Positions 3,773 through 34,186 of a stretch of 64,000 nt of DNA are shown one piece after another. Numbering within the stretch: the first letter of the stretch is position 1; each line of letters begins with the position of its first letter. The stretch lies in contig JAPPNM010000177.1 in the NCBI GenBank assembly GCA_028873825.1, forward strand, positions 4,212 to 68,211. The letters run 5' to 3'. A program made the translations under genes and the position numbers. A model generated the notes under the pieces. It worked only from the letters and a program-made list of their open reading frames with translations, had not been told where the DNA came from and searched no databases. The DNA comes from Gemmatimonadota bacterium (GTDB lineage: Bacteria > Gemmatimonadota > Gemmatimonadetes > Longimicrobiales > Gaopeijiaceae).

Positions 3773-5045
3773 GCGGCTCTCCGGGTAGTCGGCGTCGGCG
3801 TTGCGCCCCTGCTCGAGCCTGAAGCGATTGACCTCGCCGCGCTGCCCCGGCCCCTCCGCCTCGTCGCAACCGCAACACCTGCGGGTGCGGGCTCCCCGAC
3901 CGGTCCACCCAGGTTCCCAGAACCTCGTCCGTGCGGATCTGCCAGATCCTGAAGCCGGCCGGGACCTCGACGCCGCCCAGCCACGTCCCGGCGGAATCCA
4001 GCACAAGCCACTCGGCCGGCTCGTCGCGCTCGCCTGCCCCCACGTGGGGCCTGAGCCAGATCGCGCCGGCGGGGTCCACGAGGAGGTCCGAGAAGGCGGG
4101 GCGGGCGCCGGGGGCCGGCATGGTCTCGACGGCGTCGCGGATGAGCGGCGGCAGGCCCTCTCCCCTGGCCTCGCGCTCGGCCTCGATCTGCTTGTCCGTC
4201 AGGGCGAGCGGGTAGTCGGGAATCCTGAAAATGCGCAGCAGTTCCCCGCCGGGTCCCAGCTCCCGCACCTGCATGATGTCCGCGGCTCCGTAGTAGATCC
4301 TGCCGTCGTGCGTGGCGAAGTGGGAGCTCTTTGCGAAGAGCGGAGTTGCGCCCACGGCGGCGTTGTCGGCGTAGTGTTCCCTCCCGGCGGTTCGGCCGAT
4401 TGTGTCCAGCAGGGCGCCCGCCATGTCCAGGCGCACCAGGGCTCGCTCGTCGCGGAACAGCCCCGTGAGGGCGCGGTCGGGAGGGGGGATCGCCACTTCG
4501 CCTACCAGCGTTCCGTCGCCGAGGGACCGGAGGCTCTCGATCCGGTGGTCCGGCCGCATCGCGCGCACGAATTTCGGGCCGGGCGCGAAGACCGCGACGC
4601 GGCCGTCGGAGTCGCGCGCGAACAGGGAGTCTCCGACTAGCTCCAGCCGCCGCATGCCGGTGAACTGGCCCGGTCCTTCCCCCTCGCCGCCGGCCGATGC
4701 CACGAAGTAGCCTTCCGGCGTGAACTGCCGGATCTCGTTCGAGCCGGTGTTGCCGACCACGATGGACCCGTCCGACAGCCGTCCCATGCCGCGCACCAGG
4801 CTGAAGGAATAGACTTGGCCGAGTCCCCTCCGGGCCAGGTCCAGCACAGGCTCGGGGTCGATGCGCCACCGCGTGGTGTCGGTCCATACCGGCCAATGGG
4901 CTTCGACGATGGGGATGCCTGCGCTGTCCCGAACGGTGACGGACGGGCCCGAGCGAGGGTCGGAGCAGGCGTGGAGACAAAGGACGCATGCGGCGAAGGG
5001 AGCCGACGCTGGCACGCGCGCGAATCTCGGGAGCGAGCTGGTCAT
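3585..5045 (-). CDS. lipoprotein, probable beta-propeller (NHL/6-bladed-like); C-terminal about 95 aa look non-native
   Basis: ORF 3585..5045. Signal and lipobox: FAACVLCLHAC. Repetitive strand-rich body. After ...HPQVLRLRR the frame continues as Arg/Gly-rich sequence and overlaps the next gene. Confidence 0.5.
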   Translation of the reverse strand: MTSSLPRFARVPASAPFAACVLCLHACSDPRSGPSVTVRDSAGIPIVEAHWPVWTDTTRWRIDPEPVLDLARRGLGQVYSFSLVRGMGRLSDGSIVVGNTGSNEIRQFTPEGYFVASAGGEGEGPGQFTGMRRLELVGDSLFARDSDGRVAVFAPGPKFVRAMRPDHRIESLRSLGDGTLVGEVAIPPPDRALTGLFRDERALVRLDMAGALLDTIGRTAGREHYADNAAVGATPLFAKSSHFATHDGRIYYGAADIMQVRELGPGGELLRIFRIPDYPLALTDKQIEAEREARGEGLPPLIRDAVETMPAPGARPAFSDLLVDPAGAIWLRPHVGAGERDEPAEWLVLDSAGTWLGGVEVPAGFRIWQIRTDEVLGTWVDRSGSPHPQVLRLRRGGGAGAARRGQSLQARAGAQRRRRLPGEPHVALGNPGCPGGPREPRQRSLLRRQRRGRSAGRHELRSAYQRRQRGGARLAARGDGAAGPPP

Positions 5046-5101
5046 GTCGCGAAGCTACGGCCGGGGCCCCGTCGCGTCCACGGGGCATGCAGCCAGTAAA
5101 A

Positions 5102-5123
5102 TGGACGGCAAGTTTGCCGTCCA
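5102..5123. promoter_or_regulatory. perfect 10-2-10 palindrome (candidate operator) upstream of the brxA promoter
   Basis: TGGACGGCAA-GT-TTGCCGTCCA, read directly. The half-site core GCCGTCC recurs at 5144-5150, inside the promoter spacer. Confidence 0.5.
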
Positions 5124-5128
5124 CCATG

Positions 5129-5157
5129 TTGACACTCAGGACAGCCGTCCCTATCTT
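5129..5157 (+). promoter_or_regulatory. sigma70-type promoter of brxA (TTGACA-17 nt-TATCTT)
   Basis: TTGACA at 5129-5134, a 17-nt spacer, TATCTT at 5152-5157. The brxA ATG at 5166 is only 8 nt after the -10 element, implying a leaderless or near-leaderless mRNA. Confidence 0.5.
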
Positions 5158-5165
5158 TCCACGCC

Positions 5166-5951
5166 ATGTCCGACATCTTCAACAACCTGTCCCGCAACCC
5201 CGCCATGGAGCGAGCGGGCTTCCGCTTCGGCCCGCGCGGCACCCATGGGAGCCGCACCATCATGCTCCGCGAACTAACCGAGCTTCTCGCCGCGCTTCCC
5301 CCCGATGCGACCCGCGAAAATTACGCCACCGCCATCGTCGAGGAAAACGCCCTCGGGAAGCGGACCTACGCGACCCGCCTCAGCTCCCGCCAGCGCCTGA
5401 ACGAGATGTACGGTCTCGACCGGCGGCTGGCCCTCTTCCGAGTGCTCCGGCACCTCTGGAGAGTGGATCCCGACGGCCGCCCCATGCTTGCCATGCTCGC
5501 CGCCCTCGCTCGCGACCCGCTCCTCCGCGCGACCGCTTCCCCGGTCCTCGCGCTAGCCCCCGGCGAGGAGCTGGTTCGTTCCCGGTTCGCATCCGTCATC
5601 CGCGCCGCCGTCGGCTTGCGCCTGAACTCTGCCGTCCTCGACAAGGTGGCCCGCAACGCAGCGAGCTCGTGGGCGCAAGCGGGGCACCTGGAAGGCCGTG
5701 TCCGCAAGATCCGCCGCCGGATTGCCCCAACGCCCGCCGCCGCCGCCATGGCTCTGTGGCTGGGGCAGCTCGAAGGCCGTGCGGGTTTGTCTCTGCTCGA
5801 ATCCGCTTGGGCCACCGTGCTCGACGCTCCCGGCCGCGCCCTCCTTCCGGCCGCGCTCGATGCCAAGCGTCTCGGCTTGATTCATGCGCGGGTGGCGGGC
5901 AATGTGGTCGAGATCGATACCCGCATGCTTGACCCGGGGGTGAACTTGTGA
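5166..5951 (+). CDS. brxA: BREX protein BrxA (DUF1819-like)
   Basis: First gene of the canonical order brxA-brxB-brxC-pglX-pglZ-brxL. Its stop overlaps the brxB start (GTGA at 5948-5951). The assignment rests mostly on position and size. Confidence 0.6.
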   Translation: MSDIFNNLSRNPAMERAGFRFGPRGTHGSRTIMLRELTELLAALPPDATRENYATAIVEENALGKRTYATRLSSRQRLNEMYGLDRRLALFRVLRHLWRVDPDGRPMLAMLAALARDPLLRATASPVLALAPGEELVRSRFASVIRAAVGLRLNSAVLDKVARNAASSWAQAGHLEGRVRKIRRRIAPTPAAAAMALWLGQLEGRAGLSLLESAWATVLDAPGRALLPAALDAKRLGLIHARVAGNVVEIDTRMLDPGVNL

Positions 5952-6502
5952 ACCAGATCACGAAGCTGGCCGCAGTCTACCAGCGGCACGTCAGCGCGCC
6001 CTGGCAGCGCACCATGGCCGGAGCGCAACGAGTGATGATCATCGTGTACCCCAAGGAGCGGGAGCGGGCGCTGAGGGGCCGCATCGGCGAGTTCGAAGTG
6101 GCCACCCAAGAGGCCGGTCACCGCTGGGTTGATGTCGATACCACGCGCTGGTTCGCCGAATGGATGGCCGAGGATCCCTACCGCGATGCCTACTTCGAGG
6201 ACCCCGAACTGCTCGGCATGAAGCTGGAGGGCGAGTTCAAGACATTTGCCGCCGACCAGCTTACCGCGGCCCTGGAGGGCGCCGACAGGAACACCGTCGT
6301 CGCCCTCATCGGCAGCGCGTCGCTCTACGGATTCCTGCGCGTGTCCGAGCTGATCCAGTCGGTCGAACCCTTGATTCCGGGCCGTCTGGCCGTCTTCTTC
6401 CCCGGCACCAAGAACGACAACAACTACCGCCTGCTCGACGCCCGCGACGGATGGAGCTACCTGGCCCAGCCGATCACGCTGCACGACGCCTGGGTGCCGT
6501 AG
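5948..6502 (+). CDS. brxB: BREX protein BrxB (DUF1788-like)
   Basis: 184 aa, the position and size expected for BrxB. Translationally coupled to brxA. Confidence 0.65.
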   Translation: MNQITKLAAVYQRHVSAPWQRTMAGAQRVMIIVYPKERERALRGRIGEFEVATQEAGHRWVDVDTTRWFAEWMAEDPYRDAYFEDPELLGMKLEGEFKTFAADQLTAALEGADRNTVVALIGSASLYGFLRVSELIQSVEPLIPGRLAVFFPGTKNDNNYRLLDARDGWSYLAQPITLHDAWVP

Positions 6503-6539: not shown

Positions 6540-9500
6540 ATGCCACGAATGAAGATCCACGAACTCCTCGACCGCGATCCGCTTCAAGTGAGACTGGCCA
6601 ACAACGGCCAGGCCCGAATCACCGGCGGGACCGACCCGAGGGTGATGCGCGAGCTGCGCGCCGAGCTCGAGACCTTCGTCTGCACCGGCCGTTTCGCCGA
6701 CGCCCTGCAACGCATCCTGGAGCGGTACCTGGCGCACCTTGACGCGCCCCGCCAGGATGCGGTCTGGGTGAGCGGTTTCTTCGGAAGCGGCAAGTCGCAT
6801 CTGCTCAAGATGCTGGCCCACCTCTGGGAGGATACGAAGTTCGACGACGGCGCCACGGCCCGCGGACTCGTCGCCGGCCGGCTGCCGTCGGAAGTCGGGG
6901 ACGCCCTGCGGGAGCTGGAGGTCCGTGCGCGCCGCATCGGCAGGCCGCCCGTGGCCGCCGCCGGGTCGCTGCTCGGAGGCACCATCGGCCATGTGCGGCT
7001 CTCCGTGCTGGCCGTCCTGTTGCGGGCGCGCGGGTTCCCCGAGCAGTACCCACAGGCCCGGTTCTGCTTCTGGTTGCGCCAAAACGGACTCCTGGACCGA
7101 GTCCGCGGCGCCGTCGACGCGGAAGGTCGGAGTTGGGAAGGCGAACTTCACAACCTCTACGTGAGCCCGGTCATCGCCAACGCGCTCATCGAAGCCGACC
7201 CGACGTTCGCCGCGGATGTCAAGGCGGCGCGGCAGCTCCTCTTCCAGCAATTCCCGCCGCCGAAAACGGACATCACGACCGACGAGTTCGTGACGGCAGC
7301 CAAGCAGGTGCTGGCCCCCGACGGCGAGATCCCGCCGACCGTTCTCGTGCTCGACGAAGTACAGCAGTACATCAACGAGGCCCAGGACCGTTCGGCCACC
7401 ATCACCGAGCTGGCGGAGGCGCTTCAGACGCGGTTCGACAGCCGCGTGCTCCTCGTCGCATCGGGCCAGTCCGCCCTCTCTGCAGGCACGACGGCCCTGC
7501 AGTGGCTCAGCGACCGGTTTCGCACGTCCGTGCAGCTCACCGACGCCGAGGTGGAGGCCGTCACGCGCGAGGTGCTGTTGCGGAAGCGCCCGACCGCGAC
7601 ACCGGCCGTCGAGCGGATGTTCGAAGACCACGCGGGCGAGGTGTCGCGGCACCTCGGCGGGACACGCCTGGCGGTGCGGCCGGAAGATACTGACAACAAC
7701 GTGGGCGACTACCCGCTTCTGCGGACCCGCAGGCGCTTCTGGGAGGAGTGTTTCCGGGCCGCCGACCCGTCGGGCACGCAGAGCCAGCTCCGTTCGCAGC
7801 TCAGGATCCTGTACGACTCGCTCCAGGAGGTTGCGGAGGAGCCGCTGGGTACCGTGATTCGCGCCAGCGACCTGTTTCGCGCGCTCGCGGCCGACCTGGT
7901 CGGCGCGGACGTGCTGCTGAACGAGATCAACACCCGCATCGCGAAGCTCGACGACGGAACGCCCGAGGGCACGCTCATGGCCGACCTGTGCGGGCTGGTG
8001 TTCCTCATCGGCAAGCTGCCCCGGCAGGATGCGGTGGATCTCGGGGTTCGGGCGAATGCCGGGACGCTCGCCGACTTGCTTGTGAAGGAAATCACAAGCG
8101 ACTCCGGGCCCTTCCGGCACACCGTGGCGGTCGAGTTGGAGAAGCTCGCCGACGAAGGCGTGTTGATGAAGGTGGCCGACGAGTACCGCATCCAGACCAC
8201 CGAGGGCGCCGACTGGGAGCGGGCCTTCCGGGAGGAGCGGACCGCGCTCGGCCGCAACGAGGTCGAGGTCGCGGCGCGCAGGGAGCAGCTTCTGCGCGGT
8301 GCGGTACAGGAGATCGTGGGGCAGGTTCGGCCCGTGCATGGGGAGGCGAAGATCCGGCGAAGGGTCGAGCTGCGGCTGCACGGCGACCCGGACCCGGCCG
8401 GGAGCAACGCCGTCGGTGTCCGGCTCGGCGACGAGTGGTCGGTGTCTTGGGCGCAGGTGCGCGACGAGGCGCTGAAGCGCGGCATGGAGGACCCCGTGCT
8501 TCACATGCACCTCCCGAAGCAGAGCGCCGAGGAGCTGCGAAGGCACATCGTGGCCGTGGAGGCGGCCCGCCGGGTCATGGACCACCGCGGCACGCCCGCG
8601 TCCAGAGAGGGTCAGGAGGCGCGCACGAGCATGAAGAGCAGGCTCGAGGGTTCCGAGGCCGCGCGCAACGAGATCGTGAGGACCATCGTGCGGTCGGCCA
8701 GGGTCCTGCAGAGCGGAGGCGCAGAGATCTACGGCGAGGACCTTGTGTCGAAGCTGCGGACGGGTGCCGACAAGTCGCTGTGCCGCCTGTTTCCGCACTT
8801 CACCGAGGGCGACCACCGGGCCTGGCAGCCGGCGCTCAAGCGGGCGCGGGAGGGGTCGGGGGAACCATTCAAGGCGGTGGGCTGGACGGGACCGGTGTCG
8901 GAGCACCCTGTCTCGAAGCGGGTCCTCGCCGTGGTGGGCGTCGCGGCCCAGGGATCGGCTGTCCGGCGAACCTTGGAATCCGCGCCGTACGGGTGGCCCC
9001 GGGACGCCATCGACGCGGCGCTGGTCGCCCTGCACCGGGACGGACACCTCAGGGCGGAGCGGAACGGCCGGCCGTTGGCCACGGCCCAGCTGGACCAGAC
9101 CGCCATCTCCAAGGCCCGGTTCCGTCCCGAGAAGGTGCGTCTGACGACCGGGCAGCGGGTTGAGCTGCGGGGGTTGTTCGGAAAGCTGGGGGTGCGGGCC
9201 AGGAGTGGTGAGGAGGAGGAGGGGGGGCGCAGGTTCTTGGTAGCCTTGGCGGAGCTTGCGGCGAGGGCGGGGGGCGAGCCGCCGCTGCCCGCGGTGCCGG
9301 GCACGGGCGTCGTGGACGGCATCTCCCAGCTCACGGGCAACGAACAGCTCGCGGCGATGCTGGAGCACCGGGAGGAGATCGAGGGTGCGATCGGGGAATG
9401 GGGTGGTTTGGCGGAGCGGGCCGAGGGGCGGTTGGGGCGTTGGAAGCTCGCGAAGGCTCTGCATCGTCATGCGCGGGGGGAGCTGGAGATAGCAGAGGTG

Positions 9501-10016
9501 GTTGGGGCGCAGTTGGCGGCCATCGAGGAGCAGCGCAGCCTGCTTGAGGCGACCGACCACGTTTCGCCGCGTCTGGCGAGGGTGGCCGGGGCGTTGAGGA
9601 CGGAGCTGGGGGCGCGGCACGGGGAGCTTGGTGAGGCGGTGGTGCGGGCCGTGGACGGGTTGGACTCCGATGCGACGTGGGCGAAGCTGGACGAGACGGT
9701 TCGGGCGGAGATTCTTGGTGTGGTGGGTTTGGTGATGCCGTCGCCGCTCGCGGTCGAAACGGACGAGGCGCTGAGGCGGGAGCTGGACCGGCGTGGGCTG
9801 GCGGCGTGGCGTTCGGAGATCGATGCGGTGCAGGTGCGGGCGGGGAGGGCGCTGGGGGAGGCGGCGGGGCGGTTGGGTGGGGAGGAGACGCCGGTGAACT
9901 ACGTGAACGTGCGCCTCGGCACGTTGAAGGACGAGGAAGCCGTTCAGCGGTGGGTTGCGGAGCATAGGGGCAAGCTTACTGAGGCGGTCCGCAAGGGGCC
10001 GGTGATAGTGCGGTGA
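6540..10016 (+). CDS. brxC: BREX ATPase BrxC/PglY (DUF499-type P-loop)
   Basis: 1158 aa. Walker A motif GFFGSGKSHLLK near residue 80, Walker B-like VLVLDEVQQY. Alternative ATG at 6549. Confidence 0.85.
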   Translation: MPRMKIHELLDRDPLQVRLANNGQARITGGTDPRVMRELRAELETFVCTGRFADALQRILERYLAHLDAPRQDAVWVSGFFGSGKSHLLKMLAHLWEDTKFDDGATARGLVAGRLPSEVGDALRELEVRARRIGRPPVAAAGSLLGGTIGHVRLSVLAVLLRARGFPEQYPQARFCFWLRQNGLLDRVRGAVDAEGRSWEGELHNLYVSPVIANALIEADPTFAADVKAARQLLFQQFPPPKTDITTDEFVTAAKQVLAPDGEIPPTVLVLDEVQQYINEAQDRSATITELAEALQTRFDSRVLLVASGQSALSAGTTALQWLSDRFRTSVQLTDAEVEAVTREVLLRKRPTATPAVERMFEDHAGEVSRHLGGTRLAVRPEDTDNNVGDYPLLRTRRRFWEECFRAADPSGTQSQLRSQLRILYDSLQEVAEEPLGTVIRASDLFRALAADLVGADVLLNEINTRIAKLDDGTPEGTLMADLCGLVFLIGKLPRQDAVDLGVRANAGTLADLLVKEITSDSGPFRHTVAVELEKLADEGVLMKVADEYRIQTTEGADWERAFREERTALGRNEVEVAARREQLLRGAVQEIVGQVRPVHGEAKIRRRVELRLHGDPDPAGSNAVGVRLGDEWSVSWAQVRDEALKRGMEDPVLHMHLPKQSAEELRRHIVAVEAARRVMDHRGTPASREGQEARTSMKSRLEGSEAARNEIVRTIVRSARVLQSGGAEIYGEDLVSKLRTGADKSLCRLFPHFTEGDHRAWQPALKRAREGSGEPFKAVGWTGPVSEHPVSKRVLAVVGVAAQGSAVRRTLESAPYGWPRDAIDAALVALHRDGHLRAERNGRPLATAQLDQTAISKARFRPEKVRLTTGQRVELRGLFGKLGVRARSGEEEEGGRRFLVALAELAARAGGEPPLPAVPGTGVVDGISQLTGNEQLAAMLEHREEIEGAIGEWGGLAERAEGRLGRWKLAKALHRHARGELEIAEVVGAQLAAIEEQRSLLEATDHVSPRLARVAGALRTELGARHGELGEAVVRAVDGLDSDATWAKLDETVRAEILGVVGLVMPSPLAVETDEALRRELDRRGLAAWRSEIDAVQVRAGRALGEAAGRLGGEETPVNYVNVRLGTLKDEEAVQRWVAEHRGKLTEAVRKGPVIVR

Positions 10017-10951: not shown

Positions 10952-12412
10952 ATGAGTCGCCGAAGACAGGCAGGGCCCGCGAACTCGCAGTCCGCCGTCC
11001 CGGACGCGAGCGCCGTGACCTTCCGTTTCGCCAACCTGGGACCGGTCAGGGAGGCGTCCCTCCGCCCCGGTCGGCTGACCGTCGTCGCGGGACGCAACAA
11101 CACCGGGAAAACCTACATCGCGCACATGCTCTTCGGGTTTCTGCAGGCCTGGCGGCAGTGGCCCGGCGCGCTGGACACGATTCTGGAGCACCCGCGGGTC
11201 TTTCCCGACGTCCTCGCGGCCGCCGAGTCGCTGTTCGAGCGTGGCCGCGCGGTGATTCCGCTGGGCGACGCCTCGATCTTCGAACAGAGGCGGCTGCTCG
11301 CTGGCGAGCTTGGACGGGCCTTCTCGGAGCGGAACATGTCAGGGGTCATGGGATCGCGCGGGAACCGCTTCAAGGGCGCGACCCTGTCCCTTGCCGTCGA
11401 CGAGCGGGAGTTGCCGCCGGTGTTCTCGAACGCGCGCGTCCGCTTCGACGACGCCACGCTGGACGTGGGACGGGTCGGGAACAACGCGGTGATCTCGATC
11501 GACGAGGCGGAACGCGACGACCCCGATTTCGCGGCGCTGCCCGACTGGACGGCGACCGCCTACTGCTTCTTCCTCCTCCACGACCTGCTGCCTCCCCCCG
11601 TCGCACTGTCGGCGGACCGCGTCGGCATTTCCCTGTTCGCCGAGGATCTCGACTTCATGAAGGACCGGCTCGTGGATCTCCTGGTCGAGAGGGTGAACAA
11701 CGCCGGCGCCCAACCCGACCGCCCCTTCCTCGTAGTCGGCGACATCCCTGGCCGGTACGCCCTTCCCGTCCTCGAGAACATCGACTCCACGCGGCGGATG
11801 TCCACGCTGCCCCGTCGTGGCGATCTCGTCTCCGGCCAAGCGATTGCGGACGACATCAAGCGGATGACGGGGGGGTATTTCAGTCACGCCCGGGATCCGA
11901 TTCGGTTCATATCGCAGAAGCGCGACGGGAAGTTCAATGTCCCGCTTCGCCTGGCCTCGTCGTCGGCCCGGGCAATGGCCGACCTCTACTTCTTCGCCAG
12001 GTACGCCTCGGTCGGCAGGGAGTTCCTGATCATAGACACTCCGGAGAGCCACCTCGACACCGAGAACCAGGTGACTCTCGCCCGTGTGCTGGCGGGGCTG
12101 GTCCGCGAAGGCCTGCACCTGCTGATCACGACCCACAGCCCCTTTCTGCTCAAGGAGCTCAACAACCTGATCATGCTCCACGGAGACTCGCTCAAGAAGC
12201 TCGACCTCGCCCGCTCGCTGGGCTACAATCCCCGCGACGGGCTCGATCCGCGACTGGTTCGGGCCTACGTCGCCGAGGACGGCGGCCTCACGCCGGCCAG
12301 GGTCGACGACTTCGGCATCAGCCTGCCCTTCCTCGACGAGGTCGCGCGGGAAGTCTCCCGTGCGGCGGAACTGCTGGGCGATCTGGTGCGCGAGGAGGCG
12401 CGGGGCGAGTGA
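10952..12412 (+). CDS. ABC/AAA_15-AAA_21-type ATPase (OLD/abortive-infection-like ATPase without a visible nuclease domain)
   Basis: Walker A GRNNTGKTY, signature-like LASSSARAM, Walker B FLIIDTPESHLD, and the H-loop region LITTHSPFLL. Confidence 0.75.
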   Translation: MSRRRQAGPANSQSAVPDASAVTFRFANLGPVREASLRPGRLTVVAGRNNTGKTYIAHMLFGFLQAWRQWPGALDTILEHPRVFPDVLAAAESLFERGRAVIPLGDASIFEQRRLLAGELGRAFSERNMSGVMGSRGNRFKGATLSLAVDERELPPVFSNARVRFDDATLDVGRVGNNAVISIDEAERDDPDFAALPDWTATAYCFFLLHDLLPPPVALSADRVGISLFAEDLDFMKDRLVDLLVERVNNAGAQPDRPFLVVGDIPGRYALPVLENIDSTRRMSTLPRRGDLVSGQAIADDIKRMTGGYFSHARDPIRFISQKRDGKFNVPLRLASSSARAMADLYFFARYASVGREFLIIDTPESHLDTENQVTLARVLAGLVREGLHLLITTHSPFLLKELNNLIMLHGDSLKKLDLARSLGYNPRDGLDPRLVRAYVAEDGGLTPARVDDFGISLPFLDEVAREVSRAAELLGDLVREEARGE

Positions 12413-13286: not shown

Positions 13287-13300
13287 CCTCGGAACCTCGA

Positions 13301-13570
13301 ATGACCAGGGTCACCGCCACGGAACTGCGGGTCGCGATCTCCGACCTCCTCGACCGCGTGGCCCGTCACGGCGAGCGGGTTGTGGTCGAGCGGTATGGGA
13401 AGCGGGTGGCCGCCCTCGTCAGCCCGGAGGACATCGAGCTGCTGGAAGCAATCGAGGACCGCGTGGACATCGAGGCGGCCCTGCAGGCGCTGAGGGAGCC
13501 CGGTCGGCGGAGTTGGCCCAAGGTGAAGGCCGAGTTGGCTCCGCATCGCCCTGAGGGTGAGCGACGATGA
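13301..13570 (+). CDS. Phd/YefM-family antitoxin-like protein (no cognate toxin gene)
   Basis: MTRVTATELRVAISDLLDRVARHGERVVVERYGKRVAALVSPEDIELLEAIED... Starts 14 nt after Abi_2. Its stop overlaps the pglX ATG (ATGA at 13567-13570). Confidence 0.7.
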   Translation: MTRVTATELRVAISDLLDRVARHGERVVVERYGKRVAALVSPEDIELLEAIEDRVDIEAALQALREPGRRSWPKVKAELAPHRPEGERR

Positions 13571-16500
13571 CCCCCCTCCCCCCCGACCTCCGCACCCTCC
13601 TCGCCAGGGCCATCCAGCAGGCCAGGCGCGTCGGGGAATCAGGCGCCCGTCAAGCCCTCCAATCCCTCGCCGTGGACCGCGCCAGGCCTTTCGACTCCAT
13701 GTCGCTCGGCGACAAGTCGCTCCGCAACCGCCTCCGCATGCGCGGCCGCCAAGCTGGCGACCGCCGCGAGCGCCGGACCGGCACGCAGAACCTCGTCCAT
13801 CTCGCCCACGAAGTTGCATACGAGAACTGGCACCGGATGCTCTTCGCCCGGTTCCTGGCCGAAAACGGCCTGCTCCGCGATCCCGAACACGGGGTCGACC
13901 TGTCGCTGGACGACTGCCGGGACCTGGCCGAGGAAGAAGGCACCGACGCCTGGGATTTCGCGGGCCGGTGCGCCGGACACATGCTCCCGGAGATCTTCCG
14001 CGGCGACGATCCGGTGCTCGACCTGTCTCTGCCGCCGGAGACGCGGCAGGAGCTCGAAGGGCTGCTGGACGGGCTGCCCGAGGCCGTGTTCGCGGCCCCC
14101 GACTCGCTGGGCTGGACCTACCAGTTCTGGCAGGCCGAGCGGAAGGAGGAAGTCAACCGGGAGGTCAAGAGCGGCAGGAAGATCGGAGCGGACGAACTCC
14201 CGGCGGTCACCCAGCTCTTCACCGAGACCTACATGGTCCGCTTCCTGCTTCACAACACCATCGGCGCCTGGCGCGCGGGCAGGCTGCTGGCCGACCGCCC
14301 CGACCTGGCCGGGAGTGCCTATGACGAGGAAGAGCTACGGCAGCTCGCACGCCTCGACACCGCCGGCGGCTACGACTTCTCCTACCTGCGCTTCGTGCGC
14401 GGCGTCCGCGAGGAGGACGAGGACGACTCACGCACGGGCCCTTGGCGTCCGGCCGCCGGATCCTTCCCGGACTGGCCCCGCGACGCTTCGGCCCTCCGCG
14501 TGCTCGACCCCTGTTGCGGCAGCGGCCACTTCCTCGTCGAGGCGTTCGAGCTGCTCGTGCGCCTGCGCATGGCCGAGGAGGGCGTGCAGGCCGACGAGGC
14601 AATCCGCCGCGTGCTCGCGGACAACCTCTTCGGCCTGGAGATCGACCCCCGCTGCACACAGATCGCCGCGTTCAACCTGGCTCTCGCGGCGTGGCGTCTG
14701 GCGGGGGAGCCCATCGACCTGCCGCCGCTCAACGTGGCATGCGCGGGACTCGCGCCGAACGCGTCGGAGGCCGAGTGGCGGGAGCTTGCGGAGCGGGCCG
14801 AGGGCGCGACCGGACTGGCCGGGGACCGTGACCTCTTCGGGGAGGACCAATCGCTGGCGAGCGGTTCGCTCAAGGACGAGATGGCCGCGCTGCACAAGCT
14901 GTTCAGACGGGCCCCGGAGCTCGGATCGCTGCTGGACCCGGGTTCCGTGGGACGCGACCTCTTCAGCGCCGACTTCAAGTCCGTCGCGAAGCTGCTCGAC
15001 ATCGCGATTGGGCGGGAGCGGGGGGTCGCGGGACGCGACGAGCGCGCCGTGGCGGCCGCGGGGATGGCCCGGGCCGCGGAGATCCTGCAGGGGCGGTACA
15101 CGCTCGTCGTCACCAACGTGCCGTTCCTGGCGCGGGGGAAGCAGGGGAGCGGGCTGCGCACGTTCGCGGAGGCGCACCACGGCGACGCCAAGGGGGATCT
15201 GGCCACGATGTTCGTGTCGCGGATCTTCGGGTGGCTCGGCAAGGGCGGAACGCAGGCGGTCGTGTCGCCGCAGAACTGGCTGTTCCTGAAGACCTACCGG
15301 AAGCTGCGCGAGAGGTTGTTGAAGGGGCGGACGTGGAATCTGGTGGCCCGGTTGGGTCCCGGTGCCTTCGAGACGGTCTCGGGGGAGGTGGTCAATGTCG
15401 CACTCGATGTCATTTCGGCCGGGCGTCCGGATCGTGACTGGGAGATGGCGGGGGTGGACGTGTCGTCTCCTCGGGGGCAGCGCCAGATCAAGGCTGCCGA
15501 GAAGGGGGAGAGGTTGCGGGGGGCGGCGGGGGTGGTGATGGCGGGGCAGGGGGAGCAGGTGAGAAATCCGGATTCGGCCGTGTTGATGCGGCCGATTGGG
15601 GATCGGGTGTTATTAGGAAACGTGGCTCACGGTCACCAGGGCATCGCATCCGCCGACTATCCTTCCTTTGGCAGACTATTCTGGGAGATTCCAACGGATG
15701 GCGAGACGTGGGTGTTCCAACAGAGCACGGTCAACGATACTACGGATTTCGGGGGACGAGAGCATGTCCTGCACTGGACGGGCGTCGCAGAAGTTGCCGA
15801 ACGACAAGTCGCACCTGGCGGCCGTAAAGCGGTACGTATACGAGGGGGCGGGATTTGGAGCCGTGAAGGCATCGCCGTCTCCCAGATCGGGCAGCTCCCC
15901 GTAACCCGTTACACCGGGGAGAAGTTCGACAACAACACGGCTGCGCTCGGCCCCCTCGCCGAAGACATCCTCCCCGCCGTCTGGTGCTTCTGCTCCTCGC
16001 CTGACTACGCAGCCGCAGTCCGTGAGATCGACCACGCGCTGAAAGTCACTAACGCGACCCTCGTCAAGGTCCCCTTCGACCTTGAACACTGGAAGCAGAT
16101 CGCCGCCGAGCAATATCCGCACGGCCTCCCGGAACCCTACTCCGACGACCCCACGCAGTGGATCTTCCACGGCGACCCGTGCCGTAGCGTCGTGTGGAAC
16201 GAAGAGACCAAACGCACCGACCACGCGCCCCCTCGCATTGACGCCACCGTTCTCCATGTCGCCGTCGCCCGCCTCCTCGGCTACCGCTGGCCCGCCGAAC
16301 TCGACCCCGACATGCGTCTCGCCTCCGAGCAGCGCGATGTCGCCGACGACTGCCGGGCGTTCGACGACTTCGCCGATCCCGACGGCATCGTCTGCCTGCC
16401 CGCCGTCCGTGGGGAACCGCCCGCCGCCGACCGTCTCCGCTCTCTGCTGGCCTCCGCGTACGGGGACGAGTGGTCCGCCGCCACCGAGCGCGCCCTGCTG

Positions 16501-17226
16501 ACGGCCACCAGCCCCAAGCGGCCCAAGTCATTGGAGGACTGGCTCCGCAACCGTTTCTTTCAGGAACACTGCAAGCTCTTCCACAACCGTCCCTTCCTCT
16601 GGCACGTCTGGGATGGCCGCAAGGACGGCTTCCACGCGCTCGTCAACTACCACCGGCTCGCTGGGCCAGAAGGCCAAGGCCGCCGGACCCTGGAATCCCT
16701 CACCTACGCCTACCTCAACGAGTGGATTGAGCGCCAGCGCGCGGAAAGCGAGGAGGGAACACCCGGAGCGGACGGACGCGTAGCGGCCGCACTCGACCTC
16801 CAGCAGCAACTCCAGCGCATCCTCACTGGCGAGCCTCCGTGCGACATCTTCGTGCGCTGGCGACCGCTGCACGGCCAAGCCATCGGCTGGGAGCCCAACA
16901 TCAACGACGGAGTGCGCCTGAACATCCGGCCCTTCATGCGCGCGGAGCTACGCACGGGCGGCCGCGCGGGTGCGGGCCTGCTGCGGTGGAAGCCCAACGT
17001 CAAGTGGGGAAAGGACCGGGGCAAGGAACCTGAGTCACCGAGGCCACGCGACGACTTCCCTTGGTTCTGTCGCTGTCCGGGTGGCGGTGGTGAGGCGGAG
17101 CGGATCGACTTCCGGGCCGCGCTCGACGCCGACTTTGATGGGAATCGCTGGAACAATCTTCACTATTCAGCGTCGTGCAAGAACGCGGCTCGACAACGGT
17201 TAAGTGACCAAGGAACAACATCATGA
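13567..17226 (+). CDS. pglX: BREX adenine-specific DNA methyltransferase PglX
   Basis: 1219 aa. SAM motif I VLDPCCGSGHFLV. Catalytic motif IV-like VVTNVPFLARG. N-terminal ...EVAYENWHRMLFARFLAENGLL. Position between brxC and pglZ. Confidence 0.9.
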   Translation: MTPLPPDLRTLLARAIQQARRVGESGARQALQSLAVDRARPFDSMSLGDKSLRNRLRMRGRQAGDRRERRTGTQNLVHLAHEVAYENWHRMLFARFLAENGLLRDPEHGVDLSLDDCRDLAEEEGTDAWDFAGRCAGHMLPEIFRGDDPVLDLSLPPETRQELEGLLDGLPEAVFAAPDSLGWTYQFWQAERKEEVNREVKSGRKIGADELPAVTQLFTETYMVRFLLHNTIGAWRAGRLLADRPDLAGSAYDEEELRQLARLDTAGGYDFSYLRFVRGVREEDEDDSRTGPWRPAAGSFPDWPRDASALRVLDPCCGSGHFLVEAFELLVRLRMAEEGVQADEAIRRVLADNLFGLEIDPRCTQIAAFNLALAAWRLAGEPIDLPPLNVACAGLAPNASEAEWRELAERAEGATGLAGDRDLFGEDQSLASGSLKDEMAALHKLFRRAPELGSLLDPGSVGRDLFSADFKSVAKLLDIAIGRERGVAGRDERAVAAAGMARAAEILQGRYTLVVTNVPFLARGKQGSGLRTFAEAHHGDAKGDLATMFVSRIFGWLGKGGTQAVVSPQNWLFLKTYRKLRERLLKGRTWNLVARLGPGAFETVSGEVVNVALDVISAGRPDRDWEMAGVDVSSPRGQRQIKAAEKGERLRGAAGVVMAGQGEQVRNPDSAVLMRPIGDRVLLGNVAHGHQGIASADYPSFGRLFWEIPTDGETWVFQQSTVNDTTDFGGREHVLHWTGVAEVAERQVAPGGRKAVRIRGGGIWSREGIAVSQIGQLPVTRYTGEKFDNNTAALGPLAEDILPAVWCFCSSPDYAAAVREIDHALKVTNATLVKVPFDLEHWKQIAAEQYPHGLPEPYSDDPTQWIFHGDPCRSVVWNEETKRTDHAPPRIDATVLHVAVARLLGYRWPAELDPDMRLASEQRDVADDCRAFDDFADPDGIVCLPAVRGEPPAADRLRSLLASAYGDEWSAATERALLTATSPKRPKSLEDWLRNRFFQEHCKLFHNRPFLWHVWDGRKDGFHALVNYHRLAGPEGQGRRTLESLTYAYLNEWIERQRAESEEGTPGADGRVAAALDLQQQLQRILTGEPPCDIFVRWRPLHGQAIGWEPNINDGVRLNIRPFMRAELRTGGRAGAGLLRWKPNVKWGKDRGKEPESPRPRDDFPWFCRCPGGGGEAERIDFRAALDADFDGNRWNNLHYSASCKNAARQRLSDQGTTS

Positions 17227-20200
17227 CCTTTCGAGATCAACGTCATGTCCATCGGATTTGCGAAGCCCTTTGGCGTCGTTCCGGCGCGGGTGCGTCGGTC
17301 ATGGTCGGGAGCGGGTTTAGCCGGAACGCACGTGCGTTGCGCCCAGGCTCGGACTCGTTGCCCATGTTGGCCGAGATCGGGCGGGCCCTATCCGCTGAGC
17401 TGTATCCCAACGCTACCACCAATCAAGAGATACCCCCGGAGCGACTCTTGAGATTGGCGCAGGCATACCAAGCCGAATTCAAACCCACCGGGTTGCACGC
17501 AGCACTCAGGACATTGGTGGCGGACGATGACTTCACGCCAGCCACTGCCCATGAGCGACTCCTTCGACTGCCGTGGGCCGATGTGTTTACCACCAACTGG
17601 GATACACTACTGGAACGTGCAAGCGAGACCGTTAGGGACCGTGTCTACACTATCGTCCGAAGCAAGCACGACATTCCTGGAGGAGCCCGGCCACGCATCA
17701 TCAAACTCCACGGGTCCCTTCCCGATTCCGCCCTCGTCCTAACCGAAGAGGACTATCGAACCTATCCTACCAAGTTCTTGCCCTTTGTGAATACCGTACA
17801 ACAGGCAATGATGGAGACGACATTCGTCCTAATTGGCTTTTCGGGCAATGATCCTAACTTCCTTCATTGGTCAGGTTGGGTTCGTGACCACCTCGATGAA
17901 GCTGCGCTGAACATCTATCTCGCTGGATTACTGAACCTGTCGCGCCCCGAGCGCCAGATGCTCCGAGATCGCAACGTAGTTGCCATCGATCTCGCGTTGC
18001 ACCCACGAGCAGACGAGTGGCCCGATGGCCTTCGTCATGAGTACGCCACAAAGTGGATTCTCTCAGCGCTCGAATGCGGACAACCCTACAACATATCGAA
18101 ATGGCCTACGCCTCGGCCTGCGACATTCTGTTCCGAAGAGGATCCTCTACTCGATCCGATCATCCGAAACGTGTCGGCAGAACCACGCAGGGAACCCTCG
18201 GAGTCGCCACGGGAGATACCTTCGGACGAGCGCTTGATCGCCGTCAAGAAGACTCTTGACATTTGGAAGTACAACCGGGACCTTTTTCCGCGCTGGTTGG
18301 TGGCTCCGGGGCGAGTGCGAAGTGAAGTATGGTATTCCACTGAGCGCTGGATGTCTTTCGTCGTGCAGGAGCTGACGCAATTGGCCGCTCTGGAACGCCT
18401 GACCGCGATTCGCGACATCATCTGGCGGTACGAGCTGACCCTTGAGACAATCCCGGATGAACTTCACGCCGCCGCGGAGGCGGTGCTGAGATCCATCGAC
18501 TGTACAGGGCGGACGGTTGAAGGGATTCGCCCAGATGACGTGGATTGGAGCGCGACTCGTGGGGCGTGGCAGGAGGTGACCCTCGCTCTCTTGACCGCTG
18601 CCAGATACCGACTCGACGGTGCCGCTTTCGAGAAGCACCTCAACGCAGTGCAGCCCATTCTGGACGATGATGTGGAGGCAGCCCATCGTGTGAATCATGA
18701 ACGCTGCCTGTGGGCGCTGTGGGCCTTGGACCATGCGACAGTCGGCGAACGGTTAGATGCATGGAGGACTGACGAAGGCGATTCCGCTTGGGCGATGCGC
18801 AAGAGCGCCCTCCTGAGAGAGATTGGACGCAAGGAGGATGCTGATCGCTTGACTATGCGCGTCGTTGAGCGGATCAGAGCGACTCGAGATGGCCCTGGCG
18901 ATCTTGGTGGTCGGTCACGTGAAGGATGGGCGCTATGGAGTCTGGTCGAGACGTTTGCGTATGATGGCAGCTTTCAAACCCGATGGGATAATGTCCAAGC
19001 ACGATGGGATGAGCTCGCGGTCGTCAAGTGCAATCCGTATCCCGACGTCCGTAACCTCAGCGATCAGTTGTCGACCGATCGGCGCGAAACTCGGGTCCCG
19101 GCTTTCGACCTCGGAATGCGTCCGACAGAGTCGCACACGATGCAGATGGTACGTCCGCCCTCTGCATCGCGGGGCATTCGACTGACCGAGGTCGCGGGTG
19201 TCGCCCCTACGACTGGTGTGCGGACGGTCGCGGGCGGCTTGGTGAAGCGGGCTGCCGAAGCACTGATCTCCGATGATGCCACCCTTGGAATGCGTCAGAT
19301 GATCCGCGTCGCCGAATCGGGCAACGACAAGGCGCTGAGGCGTGTGCTGACCCGTCCACGAGTGGCTGCGCTTACTGCTGCGAGCGCACGAGCACTGTCT
19401 CGCGATGTTCAGATCGCATTGAAGAACTCAGTATCGGATATTCGGACCACCAGAGACGAAACCCGATTCAAAGCGGTGAGGCACACGAGCGTCGCCATGG
19501 AGTCATTGTCACGGCTGGTGCTGCGACTGGAGCCTGGAGCGGCTCTCTCGATCTTTGACCGTGCGCTTGGCCTCTATCGGGACACGTCGGTGATGGAGTG
19601 GATTCAGCTGCACGGATCACTGCGTAACCTGTTGAGGAGAAGTTGGGAGACTCTTGACGACGAACAGCGCACGGAGCGAATACTCGATGTTCTTGAGACG
19701 CCGATCGTCGGGCTCGACGGGTATGCGAGTGCCGGTGATCACTGGCCTGATCCCAGTGAGATCCTGTCGGAGGATCTTTCGCCAGTGCGTTCTGAAGAGA
19801 ATGAGAATCGATGGAACTCAGTGGTGGCCACGTTGATTCGAGGGTCGAGCGCCGAGGGGCAGGTACGTGAACGGGCAGCAGTCAGGCTTGCCAAGATCGC
19901 GTTGTGGGGTCGCCTTGCGAAGACAGAGACGGAGAGAGTCGCTGAGGCTATCTGGGGAGTCGCAGCGGATGAAGAACAAGCGCTTCCAGATGGCACGTCG
20001 CTGCACGACTATGCCTTTATTCTGCTTCCCGAGCCCAAGGTTGGCGTTGGAAGAGCGCGCTTTGGGCGAAAGTGGCTGTCGGGGGATGTTGCCAATGTGC
20101 GGCTTGGCGGCGAGGTCGGCCACAAAGATTCGACTAGGGCAGACGACATTCTGTGGCAGGCGGGCATGTCCGTTGCGTTCGTACGTCGTCACGGGAGAAC

Positions 20201-21050
20201 GTTGGATCTGACCAATGAGGAGAAGGATTATCTGATCGGAGTGATTGATCATTGGTCACGGACTAGGGCTCCCAAGCCTTCGGTAGTGATTCCAGAGTTC
20301 TTTAGAGATTTGCGGACACGATCGATCTGGGATGCGTGCCGTGGGTTGCGGTGGCTTTTGACTGAGATTCGGATTCCCAATGGTCTTGCGGAGAGACTAT
20401 ATGGGCAAGTGCCGGAGTTGATCGATAGCGGGATTTCAGCGTACGGCATCCTTCCGGGCATCGACAATGTAGACGAGGATCTGCGTGAGGACATTGCGTT
20501 GCTTATGTCAACCGGATTGGCATCGGACGATCGCAAGATGGGGGAGAGCGCGATGTGGTCATTGCACTGTTGGTTGCGGTTCGCGTCAGAGTCGGCGCTT
20601 GACTTCGTCGGTCCCCCACAGCACTTGATTCGGGAAATTGGGGTTTCGGTGGCCACGAGGCGGCGAACGGTACTGGGAGAGGCGCTCCACGCGGCGAAGT
20701 GGATCTTTGAAGACGGCAGTGAAGAAGAGCGAGACGCGATCCGCGACTTGGTGCTGAAGGGCTTGGGCTACCTCGCCGAAGAGTTGCGGTACGATCGCGA
20801 GGACCCGCTCGATGAGAAACTCGATGTTCCGCTCGCACGGTGGCGCAGCATCCAAGTGGCGCGAGCGATGGCCGGGCAGGGTTTGGGCGGGCATCCCGTG
20901 GTCAAGCGGTGGTTGCAGTTGGGAATGGATGACCCGCTACCGGAAGTACGACGTGTCGCGAACAGGAGGCGGGAGGGTGATGCGATGGTCGAAGTGGCCG
21001 GTGCAGATGGGCGACATGAGTTCGCCGACGAGGGTGGGGCCGATGCCTAG
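17223..21050 (+). CDS. SIR2_2-domain protein with about 1000-aa helical C-terminal region (DSR-like candidate NADase effector)
   Basis: Contains VMVGSGFS, FTTNWDTLLERA, IIKLHGSL and LIGFSGNDPNFLHW within the first 260 aa. HEAT-like DDPLPEVRRVA near the C-terminus. The ATG overlaps the pglX stop (ATGA). GC is visibly lower than in the flanking genes. Confidence 0.8.
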   Translation: MTFRDQRHVHRICEALWRRSGAGASVMVGSGFSRNARALRPGSDSLPMLAEIGRALSAELYPNATTNQEIPPERLLRLAQAYQAEFKPTGLHAALRTLVADDDFTPATAHERLLRLPWADVFTTNWDTLLERASETVRDRVYTIVRSKHDIPGGARPRIIKLHGSLPDSALVLTEEDYRTYPTKFLPFVNTVQQAMMETTFVLIGFSGNDPNFLHWSGWVRDHLDEAALNIYLAGLLNLSRPERQMLRDRNVVAIDLALHPRADEWPDGLRHEYATKWILSALECGQPYNISKWPTPRPATFCSEEDPLLDPIIRNVSAEPRREPSESPREIPSDERLIAVKKTLDIWKYNRDLFPRWLVAPGRVRSEVWYSTERWMSFVVQELTQLAALERLTAIRDIIWRYELTLETIPDELHAAAEAVLRSIDCTGRTVEGIRPDDVDWSATRGAWQEVTLALLTAARYRLDGAAFEKHLNAVQPILDDDVEAAHRVNHERCLWALWALDHATVGERLDAWRTDEGDSAWAMRKSALLREIGRKEDADRLTMRVVERIRATRDGPGDLGGRSREGWALWSLVETFAYDGSFQTRWDNVQARWDELAVVKCNPYPDVRNLSDQLSTDRRETRVPAFDLGMRPTESHTMQMVRPPSASRGIRLTEVAGVAPTTGVRTVAGGLVKRAAEALISDDATLGMRQMIRVAESGNDKALRRVLTRPRVAALTAASARALSRDVQIALKNSVSDIRTTRDETRFKAVRHTSVAMESLSRLVLRLEPGAALSIFDRALGLYRDTSVMEWIQLHGSLRNLLRRSWETLDDEQRTERILDVLETPIVGLDGYASAGDHWPDPSEILSEDLSPVRSEENENRWNSVVATLIRGSSAEGQVRERAAVRLAKIALWGRLAKTETERVAEAIWGVAADEEQALPDGTSLHDYAFILLPEPKVGVGRARFGRKWLSGDVANVRLGGEVGHKDSTRADDILWQAGMSVAFVRRHGRTLDLTNEEKDYLIGVIDHWSRTRAPKPSVVIPEFFRDLRTRSIWDACRGLRWLLTEIRIPNGLAERLYGQVPELIDSGISAYGILPGIDNVDEDLREDIALLMSTGLASDDRKMGESAMWSLHCWLRFASESALDFVGPPQHLIREIGVSVATRRRTVLGEALHAAKWIFEDGSEEERDAIRDLVLKGLGYLAEELRYDREDPLDEKLDVPLARWRSIQVARAMAGQGLGGHPVVKRWLQLGMDDPLPEVRRVANRRREGDAMVEVAGADGRHEFADEGGADA

Positions 21051-26440: not shown

Positions 26441-26701
26441 GCGTGCAGAGACCAGTTATGACCGTTGGTCACGTAAATCGTAAAATGTTGCAGTACAGTC
26501 TTTTACGAAAGATATGAACTTCAGCATCGTGAATATGACCACTAGCGTGGCCGCGTTTTCGGTTGCCATCCGGTGGAATCAGCGTCGCGCGGCTCCACCG
26601 GCTATGATCACCACTCACCGAGCTATGACCACCCGCGACGATCATCACAACCTGTTGTCGACAAATCTCTTACGAGACATATGCCCCCGAGGTCCGCACT
26701 T
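26441..26701 (+). promoter_or_regulatory. AT-rich repeat-bearing region upstream of pglZ (probable internal promoter/operator region)
   Basis: A 60-nt sample is about 37% GC. About eight TATGA(C/T/A) motifs. Palindrome TGACC-GTT-GGTCA at 26459-26471. T(T/C)TTACGA(A/G)A(G/C)ATATG occurs twice. Confidence 0.5.
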
Positions 26702-33470: not shown

Positions 33471-33770
33471 ATGAAAAAGGCTAGCGTCAGCGAGGCGAAG
33501 AACGGTCTCAGCGGTCTGCTGAGCGAGGTTCGGCGCGGCGAGTCGGTGCTGATCACCCACCGCGGGCGGCCCGTTGCGCGAATCGAACCGTGCCAGGTCG
33601 CCGGCCCGGACGCAGAGGACGCCATTTCCGAGCTCCTGCAGCGGGGTGTCGCATCCCCGCCTCGAGCGCCACTTGATGTCGAGCGCTTCCTGGGTGTCCC
33701 CGCCGCTCGGCTGACCGGGGGAGTCAGCGCAAGCGAGATCGTCGTGACCGAGCGCGGGGGGCGTCGTTGA
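33471..33770 (+). CDS. Phd/YefM-family antitoxin
   Basis: MKKASVSEAKNGLSGLLSEVRRGESVLITHRGRPVARIEP... TTGACA at 33436 with a -10-like CACTATAGC just upstream. Overlaps the vapC start. Confidence 0.75.
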   Translation: MKKASVSEAKNGLSGLLSEVRRGESVLITHRGRPVARIEPCQVAGPDAEDAISELLQRGVASPPRAPLDVERFLGVPAARLTGGVSASEIVVTERGGRR

Positions 33771-34186
33771 AGTACTGGGACTCGTCGGCTCTGGTGGCGC
33801 TCGTCGTGGACGAGCCGCGAAGCGCGGAGCGCCGGGCGACGATCCGCCGGGATCCGGTGATCGTGACGTGGTGGGGTAGCCGGATCGAATGTGCATCGGC
33901 GCTGAATCGCCTGGAACGTGATCACCGCTTCGAGGATGACGGGCTCGGCCGGTCGATGGACCAGCTCGGGATGCTGGCCGCGAGTTGGCTCGAGATCGAG
34001 CCTCTGGAGCAGGTGCGCAGGCGCGCGATCAGGCTGCTTCGGCTTCATCCGCTGCGCGCGGCGGACGCGTTGCAGCTGGCGGCGGCGCTCACCGCTTCGG
34101 ACGAGGACCCCCAGCGGCTGGATCTGGTCAGCAGCGATGATCGTCTCTCGGCCGCGGCGCGCCGCGAGGGGTTCACGGTTCTGTGA
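33767..34186 (+). CDS. vapC: PIN-domain toxin VapC
   Basis: TTG start overlapping the antitoxin stop. MKYWDSSALVALVVDE... with acidic PIN residues (D5, E..., DALQLAAAL, SSDDRL). Confidence 0.75.
   Translation: MKYWDSSALVALVVDEPRSAERRATIRRDPVIVTWWGSRIECASALNRLERDHRFEDDGLGRSMDQLGMLAASWLEIEPLEQVRRRAIRLLRLHPLRAADALQLAAALTASDEDPQRLDLVSSDDRLSAAARREGFTVL

Follow-up and report, generated by a model that had tools for sequence, protein, structure and literature searches.

The 64-kb stretch of DNA analysed here (the window) belongs to a 3.3-Mb genome assembly that is 93% complete and whose relatives are labelled Longimicrobiales or Gemmatimonadota. It carries a type 1 BREX operon in which all six core genes, brxA, brxB, brxC, pglX, pglZ and brxL, were matched by PADLOC or Pfam (Table 1). 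Cargo genes occupy two intervals of the operon. The interval between brxC and pglX holds a truncated HATPase_c_4 protein, a PD-T4-4-like ATPase, a 237-aa protein and phd, the small gene at the center of this report, while the interval between pglX and pglZ holds a DSR2-like SIR2 protein and three Schlafen/AlbA_2-HATPase_c_4 proteins. The 237-aa protein matched no Pfam family, Abi_2 included, at E-values up to 1; its gene stops 14 nt before the ATG of phd, and no equivalent gene precedes phd in other loci. On the other side of phd, the initial annotation had given PglX a normal full-length N-terminus, and our analysis agrees, pglX being a full-length gene: PglX residues 1–1213 align to positions 1–1123 of the PADLOC PglX model, and the N-terminal sequence MTPLPPDLR is common to relatives. 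Past brxL, at a distance of 2.4 kb, is an intact and separate toxin-antitoxin pair in which the gene of a Phd-like antitoxin (PF02604, E 9e-9) overlaps that of a PIN-domain toxin (PF01850, E 2e-7) by 4 nt.

The phd gene encodes an 89-aa protein that had been read as Phd/YefM antitoxin-like, correctly so by both family profiles. Pfam PF02604 (PhdYeFM_antitox) matches with 47 bits against a cut-off of 29.8 (E 2.2e-12), pairing Phd residues 1–69 with profile positions 1–69 of 74, and NCBIfam TIGR01552 (phd_fam) matches with 26.2 bits against a cut-off of 20.8; no PADLOC model matches the protein. Gene callers picked an alternative start on identical contigs, a GTG at 13283 that yields 95 aa and a GTGA overlap with the upstream gene; family homology begins at the ATG at 13301, not at this GTG. 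We defined conserved positions as those with an identical residue in at least 90% of 115 unique toxin-paired relatives, which gave 17 positions. The window Phd deviates at none of them and could, for this reason, still be functional. Judged by profiles and conserved residues, the small gene before pglX is a real Phd/YefM antitoxin gene, and its protein still looks competent.

Phd/YefM antitoxins are dimers with a flexible C-terminus, and their C-terminal tail is the toxin-binding end. An AlphaFold2 monomer of the window Phd, built from a 12-sequence alignment, is of low confidence (mean pLDDT 62.6) and consists of a helix (res. 6–23), two strands (res. 27–31 and 34–38) and C-terminal helices, with no N-terminal strand. 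Foldseek comparison of this low-confidence model with the PDB gave chance-level matches, none of them significant, and a single-sequence search of the PDB found nothing. A profile search of the PDB returned weak antitoxin matches, of which the nearest structure is 9g12_C, an antitoxin named RelB (E 2e-6).

The stop codon of phd (TGA, 13568–13570) overlaps the start codon of pglX (ATG, 13567–13569) as ATGA. The initial annotation had reported this overlap and had seen in it the position that an antitoxin holds relative to its toxin. The overlap itself is confirmed; its value as a toxin-antitoxin signature is not, since four other junctions of the same operon also overlap by 4 nt (five including phd/pglX) and since the window overlap stems from a 1-nt deletion, described below. 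A promoter scan around phd returned a single weak promoter-like site, inside the ATPase gene, and a terminator scan of the plus strand from the ATPase gene to pglX returned no terminator-like site.

Table 1 Features of the window and of related loci (window positions unless a contig is named)
Feature	Position	Strand	Basis or remark
brxA	5166-5951	+	PADLOC/Pfam
brxB	5948-6502	+	PADLOC/Pfam
brxC	6540-10016	+	PADLOC/Pfam
Cargo ABC-type ATPase in brxC-pglX slot	10952-12412	+	PADLOC PD-T4-4_A, 227 bits
Upstream cargo gene, 237 aa	12573-13286	+	Weak PADLOC PD-T4-5 match, E 8e-10
Left recombination junction	13287-13300	+	phd-cassette homology begins here
Orphan phd (Phd/YefM antitoxin)	13301-13570	+	89 aa, intact; Pfam, NCBIfam, conserved residues
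Right junction	13556-13566	+	1-nt deletion site, old stop, ~three-codon parE stub joined to pglX start
pglX, BREX type 1 methyltransferase, full length	13567-17226	+	PADLOC PglX, 1464 bits
39-nt segment inside pglX	16623-16661
Recurrence of the 39-nt segment	24361-24399		92% identical
DSR2-like SIR2 cargo gene after pglX	17223-21050	+	Pfam/PADLOC
pglZ	26573-29047	+	Completes BREX core
brxL	29044-31107	+	Completes BREX core
Separate toxin-antitoxin pair	33471-34186		Antitoxin 33471-33770, toxin 33767-34186
phd-parE cassettes in BREX loci	L142 (G231) 5001-5536; L144 5001-5527; L009-L014 6001-6536; L061 2335-2867
AT-rich TTGTAKA-repeat stretch	L142 4930-4965; also L012, L145		Upstream of phd; probably promoter/operator
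pglX 5' fragment after phd	L056 (G192) 14373-14534	-	Followed by unrelated cargo
pglX 5' fragment after phd	L222 481-612		Followed by unrelated cargo
pglX 5' fragment after phd	L223 1105-1170		Followed by unrelated cargo
Mosaic phd	L225 553-792		Window-like first half, G192-like second half
pglX beside a phd identical to the window's	L023 3832-7464

ParE as the usual partner of Phd

A protein search returned more than 100 clusters 58–90% identical to the window Phd, most of them 87 aa long. For homologues 72–81% identical, the next gene in every long contig inspected is a 91-aa PF05016 (ParE/RelE superfamily) gene; in these paired cassettes phd ends GTT TGA and the TTG start of parE spans the phd stop. 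From metagenomes and one genome per species we collected 159 loci with Phd relatives, all of them metagenome-derived and many on short contigs, and 153 are not cut by a contig end. A ParE/RelE homologue lies directly downstream on the same strand in 140 of these 153 informative loci and is full length in 129 of the 140, a pairing that spans Gemmatimonadota, Planctomycetota, Acidobacteriota and other phyla. Therefore, this Phd subfamily is a regular ParE-type antitoxin across these phyla. In the window, the gene directly 3' of phd is pglX instead of a toxin gene, and the 93%-complete genome contains no cognate toxin, its best ParE-like match being 35% identical and located on another contig. 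The orphan status assigned to phd at the outset is thereby upheld.

Some phd-parE pairs 75–80% identical to the window gene are found on contigs that bear genes for relaxase, ParA and integrase, and others directly follow brxL in a BREX locus that closely resembles the window's. Taken together, type 1 BREX loci of Longimicrobiales harbour the cassette at three positions: in the brxC-pglX interval, ahead of brxA (L144) and following brxL (L061 and L009–L014). Three genomes of the same genus carry it, or phd with a parE remnant, in the slot before pglX. Specifically, G231 has the order brxA-brxB-brxC-phd-parE, with a full parE, followed by a HATPase_c_4 fragment, 1.2 kb and pglX. A decayed BREX locus in G064 reads phd-parE-pglX, and the stop of parE overlaps an ATG that opens the pglX frame. 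G192 has brxC, a 300-aa gene, phd, a parE remnant of 16 codons, a 34-codon pglX 5' fragment, a 332-aa gene and pglX. In a further contig, L141, the cassette follows brxC and its parE is frameshifted. Because it is found at several BREX positions, the cassette is a recurrent passenger of these loci and not a companion of pglX. The genes to the left of phd vary by locus (the 237-aa protein, an unrelated 300-aa protein, DUF3226, peptidase S8 or brxC), so phd has no conserved upstream partner; the two candidates for such a partner, the 237-aa protein of the window and the 300-aa protein of G192, were rejected, as they are unrelated to each other and neither has a Pfam match.

A search of 400 genomes from the phylum with the first 400 residues of PglX gave 22 close-homologue loci in 19 other genomes. 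A phd gene lies within ~2 kb upstream of pglX in three of the 22, each time accompanied by parE or a parE remnant, and none of the 22 has a toxin-less phd abutting pglX. The other 19 loci lack phd, and conserved co-occurrence of phd with the BREX core genes is therefore not observed; the pairing of phd with pglX, whose presence in other BREX loci the initial annotation had thought worth surveying, is not conserved.

These counts weigh against the proposal that Phd might be devoted to neutralising or regulating PglX, or the DSR2-like SIR2 protein, in analogy to Streptomyces Pgl. The placement of phd directly upstream of pglX, overlapping it, speaks for such a role, but deletion of parE explains this adjacency. 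The available text of a paper on Pgl reports toxicity of PglX in the absence of PglZ (PMC4365076), but pglZ is present in the window locus. The pairing does persist across variants with PglX N-terminal regions 90–94% identical to the window's; however, phd also occurs with a mere stub of pglX, the great majority of related pglX loci do without it, and contigs whose phd is identical have another gene behind pglX, which leaves no link to SIR2. Selection on phd is also relaxed (see below), and no publication connecting BREX with Phd/YefM or ParE turned up in literature searches. In the sequences, nothing supports a PglX-specific role, and we regard a dedicated partnership as extremely improbable.

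Junctions of the toxin-less copies

A toxin-less phd joined to the 5' end of pglX was found in six diverged variants, represented by the window, L021, L022, L220, L222 and L223. The window's phd recurs unchanged in metagenome contigs L023 and L024, where a different gene follows pglX; in L023 this gene takes the place of the DSR2-like SIR2 gene. In L021, L022 and L220, the N-terminal parts of PglX are 90–94% identical to the window's. In L222 and in L223/L224, phd is followed by merely 22–43 codons of pglX and then by other cargo. All six variants keep open phd frames of 85–89 codons, and in five of the six the phd stop lies 6–8 nt before the pglX ATG, with the spacer GCGACC in four.

DNA alignment resolves how phd and pglX were joined. 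Homology to the paired cassettes extends through the phd stop plus ~5 nt and then switches to CATGACCCCCCTCCC, the start of pglX; the ~5 nt past the stop are a stub of the first three parE codons (TTG AGC GAC). The initial annotation had held that a degraded ParE remnant between phd and pglX would speak against a role of Phd towards PglX. Such remnants are present in relatives, and the window keeps about three codons in the form of this stub. The window junction carries one further change, a 1-nt deletion where relatives read GGATTGA and the window, L023 and L024 read GGG-TGA, on which three independent assemblies agree. The old phd stop (TGA, 13558–13560) is out of frame in the window, and the deletion adds the residues GERR, so that the frame ends in the ATGA overlap.

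On the left side, phd-cassette homology begins with GGAACCTCGA before the ATG. Left of this junction, the 3' end of the unrelated 237-aa cargo gene replaces an AT-rich region that, in the paired cassettes, carries three TTGTAKA repeats ~40 nt before the ribosome-binding site in an otherwise G+C-rich genome. This stretch is probably the promoter/operator of the phd-parE cassette. The TTGTAKA-repeat motif does not occur in the 64-kb window, and the three matches with two mismatches found elsewhere in the genome adjoin no Phd genes. The window phd is accordingly not preceded by the putative promoter/operator region of its own cassette. Autoregulation of a pglX-SIR2 operon by Phd, one of the roles considered at the outset, is weakened because the window copy has lost this native upstream AT-rich repeat region.

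The geometry of the right junction has to be weighed for another reading, that the phd frame is a leader for pglX. Ribosomes ending phd would restart at the pglX ATG (translational coupling), selection would preserve the open frame and the place where it ends, not the protein sequence, and, where the cassette promoter is kept, Phd would repress the promoter now driving pglX. The phd stop indeed lies 6–8 nt before the pglX ATG or overlaps it in every toxin-less variant, the window frame after the deletion ends exactly at ATGA, and open frames with elevated dN/dS fit selection for an open frame alone. No Shine-Dalgarno-like motif is visible before the window pglX, which is in keeping with coupling, but related pglX genes without phd likewise have no clear motif. 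Furthermore, all that follows phd in L222, L223 and G192 is a short 5' piece of pglX and then other cargo, which means that the pair can also move when no functional pglX goes with it, and the upstream repeat region of the cassette is lost in the window. On balance, a leader function appears very unlikely.

The pglX 5' fragments of 22–43 codons that directly follow phd and precede unrelated cargo (Table 1) include that of G192, where the full pglX lies ~1 kb beyond the fragment. Cargo seems to have been inserted or swapped at the conserved first ~100 nt of pglX, duplicating that end; a second copy of the pglX 5' end, sought in the window as the scar of a cargo insertion, was not present there. 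The phd gene also recombines internally. Nucleotides 1–120 of the mosaic phd in L225 are identical to the window and nucleotides 121–240 are identical to G192 bar one mismatch; therefore, homologous recombination occurs inside phd. Within pglX itself, the window and L023 proteins are 98–100% identical over the first 500 residues and 33–73% identical over residues ~500–900, a pattern that fits a target-recognition region at about residues 500–900 swapped between close strains. In addition, a 39-nt segment of pglX recurs just after the gene of the 393-aa Schlafen-like protein and is likely another recombination scar in the cargo region.

Relaxed selection and the origin of the orphan

In a maximum-likelihood tree of the first 243 nt of phd, the six toxin-less variants and the mosaic L225 form one group (support 83/83), whose terminal branches are long and which is nested among toxin-paired copies from Longimicrobiales. 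The AU test found monophyly of the toxin-less copies compatible with the data (p 0.17), neither rejecting nor proving it, and recombination within phd, as in L225, blurs both this tree and pairwise dN/dS. Pairwise dN/dS values, calculated by the Nei-Gojobori method over 80 codons and to be read as rough, are 0.13 between paired copies (171 pairs) and 0.42 between toxin-less copies (15 pairs, range 0.28–1.3), compared with 0.15–0.21 for the adjacent pglX on the same contigs (dS about 0.2). The window copy and the nearest of the other toxin-less variants, L022, are separated by 14 non-synonymous and 7 synonymous differences, giving a dN/dS of 0.71, which is indistinguishable from 1 (p 0.47) and departs from 0.13 (p 1e-4). 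Against L220 the value is 0.39, below 1 with p 0.02 against neutrality. Deeper comparisons of toxin-less copies gave 0.28–0.47, and some constraint therefore persists or persisted for a time. Conserved positions are damaged in other toxin-less copies (K34 is deleted in L021, and L222 carries G33E, K34E and A37P), and the C-terminal tail is altered in all of them, in the window by the frameshift that extends it. Constraint on the toxin-less phd is clearly relaxed, though not demonstrably zero.

The residual constraint raises a further possibility, that Phd is kept as an anti-addiction or immunity factor. It would bind ParE proteins of the same family, protect the cell from post-segregational killing by plasmids and integrative elements of the same communities that bear the 75–80% identical cassettes, and could buffer ParE that arrives with swapped BREX cargo. 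Near-identical cassettes abound on contigs that also encode relaxase, ParA and integrase. The window Phd keeps all conserved residues, but some toxin-less copies have lost conserved residues, and the altered C-terminal tail is the toxin-binding part of the protein. The toxin-less copies are still open frames with dN/dS below 1 in deeper comparisons; nevertheless, their dN/dS is about three times that of paired copies and near 1 on the shortest branches. Orphan antitoxins have been discussed as possible anti-addiction modules (PMC7192599). Weighing both sides, we consider retention for this purpose unlikely in the window.

The account that we favour, and that we think quite likely correct, is that the window phd is the remainder of an ordinary phd-parE cassette after deletion of its toxin gene in a BREX cargo hotspot. 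It builds on the antitoxin family of the protein, its orphan status, the ancestral pairing with parE, the two junctions and the relaxed dN/dS. The canonical two-gene cassette is a frequent passenger of Longimicrobiales BREX loci, and an ancestor of this lineage would have carried it between brxC and pglX, in the slot where cargo varies. Deletion or recombination would then have removed parE from about its fourth codon, plus everything up to the pglX start, leaving phd 6 nt upstream of pglX. In the window sub-lineage, the 1-nt deletion would have removed the original stop, making the frame three codons longer and creating the ATGA overlap with pglX, and a cargo swap on the left would have put the 3' end of an unrelated gene where the cassette's own upstream region had been. 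Production of Phd most likely continues, since phd would be transcribed along with the rest of the long BREX operon and the conserved core of the protein is intact. It would now have no toxin to neutralise and no native operator to bind and would be drifting under relaxed selection, a gene copy carried inside the operon, used as a homology arm in cargo swaps and slowly decaying. We infer that it has no present function towards PglX.

The initial annotation had offered three readings of phd, as a regulator or neutraliser of PglX, as an autoregulator of the pglX-SIR2 operon, or as a toxin-antitoxin remnant. The last is the one that stands, given that ParE is the next gene in nearly all informative loci, that same-genus genomes have phd-parE or its remnant in the slot before pglX, that constraint on phd is relaxed and that most related pglX genes occur without phd; of the other two, autoregulation is weakened and a PglX-specific role has nothing in its support. 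We give a small chance to a later co-option of this remnant, whether of the phd frame as a fixed 5' leader of pglX through coupling or of its product as a trans-acting shield against incoming ParE cassettes. If true, co-option of either kind would explain why the frame is open in six diverged variants and why phd is transferred jointly with the first pglX codons, as the left arm in swaps of BREX cargo.

Relation to known systems

The findings leave the current view of how BREX works unchanged. They remove an attractive and unsupported idea, a Phd-type neutraliser of the BREX methyltransferase, and put in its place a documented loss of a toxin gene from a cassette in BREX cargo slots. Their wider value is modest: BREX loci of Longimicrobiales repeatedly host phd-parE cassettes, at three positions; swaps of defence cargo use both phd and the conserved pglX 5' end as recombination arms; and an orphan antitoxin can stay an open frame over a synonymous divergence of about 0.1–0.5 under relaxed constraint.

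The nearest known systems are type II modules of a Phd/YefM antitoxin and a ParE/RelE-superfamily toxin (PF02604 plus PF05016). The window gene shares with them the antitoxin domain and the 17 conserved residues, and its closest relatives (72–81% identical) are the first gene of such modules. It departs from them in having no toxin gene downstream or elsewhere in the genome, no native upstream repeats, and an altered and extended C-terminal tail.

Among BREX-associated proteins, the comparison that suggests itself is BrxR, a WYL-domain protein encoded upstream of type 1 BREX operons and described, in the available text of its report, as a regulatory element of its BREX system (PMC9122589). Both BrxR and Phd are small proteins of DNA-binding type encoded in or next to a BREX operon. 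As far as that text describes it, however, BrxR belongs to an unrelated family and precedes brxA, whereas the window Phd is encoded ahead of pglX, stems from a toxin-antitoxin cassette and is missing from most related loci. Auxiliary and embedded BREX cargo has been surveyed and includes Schlafen-like, OLD/TOPRIM, HEPN and other proteins (PMC12839542). The window locus resembles these, with its three Schlafen/AlbA_2-HATPase_c_4 genes, DSR2-like gene and PD-T4-4-like ATPase, and phd sits in one such slot. In that survey, Phd and ParE each have 0 occurrences, and the passenger in the window is of the toxin-antitoxin cassette kind rather than a nuclease effector.

Orphan antitoxins as such are already well documented. 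In Klebsiella pneumoniae they have been read as degrading toxin-antitoxin pairs or as possible anti-addiction factors (PMC7192599), and the likeness is close, an antitoxin gene near in sequence to paired ones, with no toxin and with a different downstream context. Unlike the Klebsiella orphans, the window phd sits inside a BREX operon, where the block that it forms with about the first 20–35 codons of pglX recurs between cargo variants.
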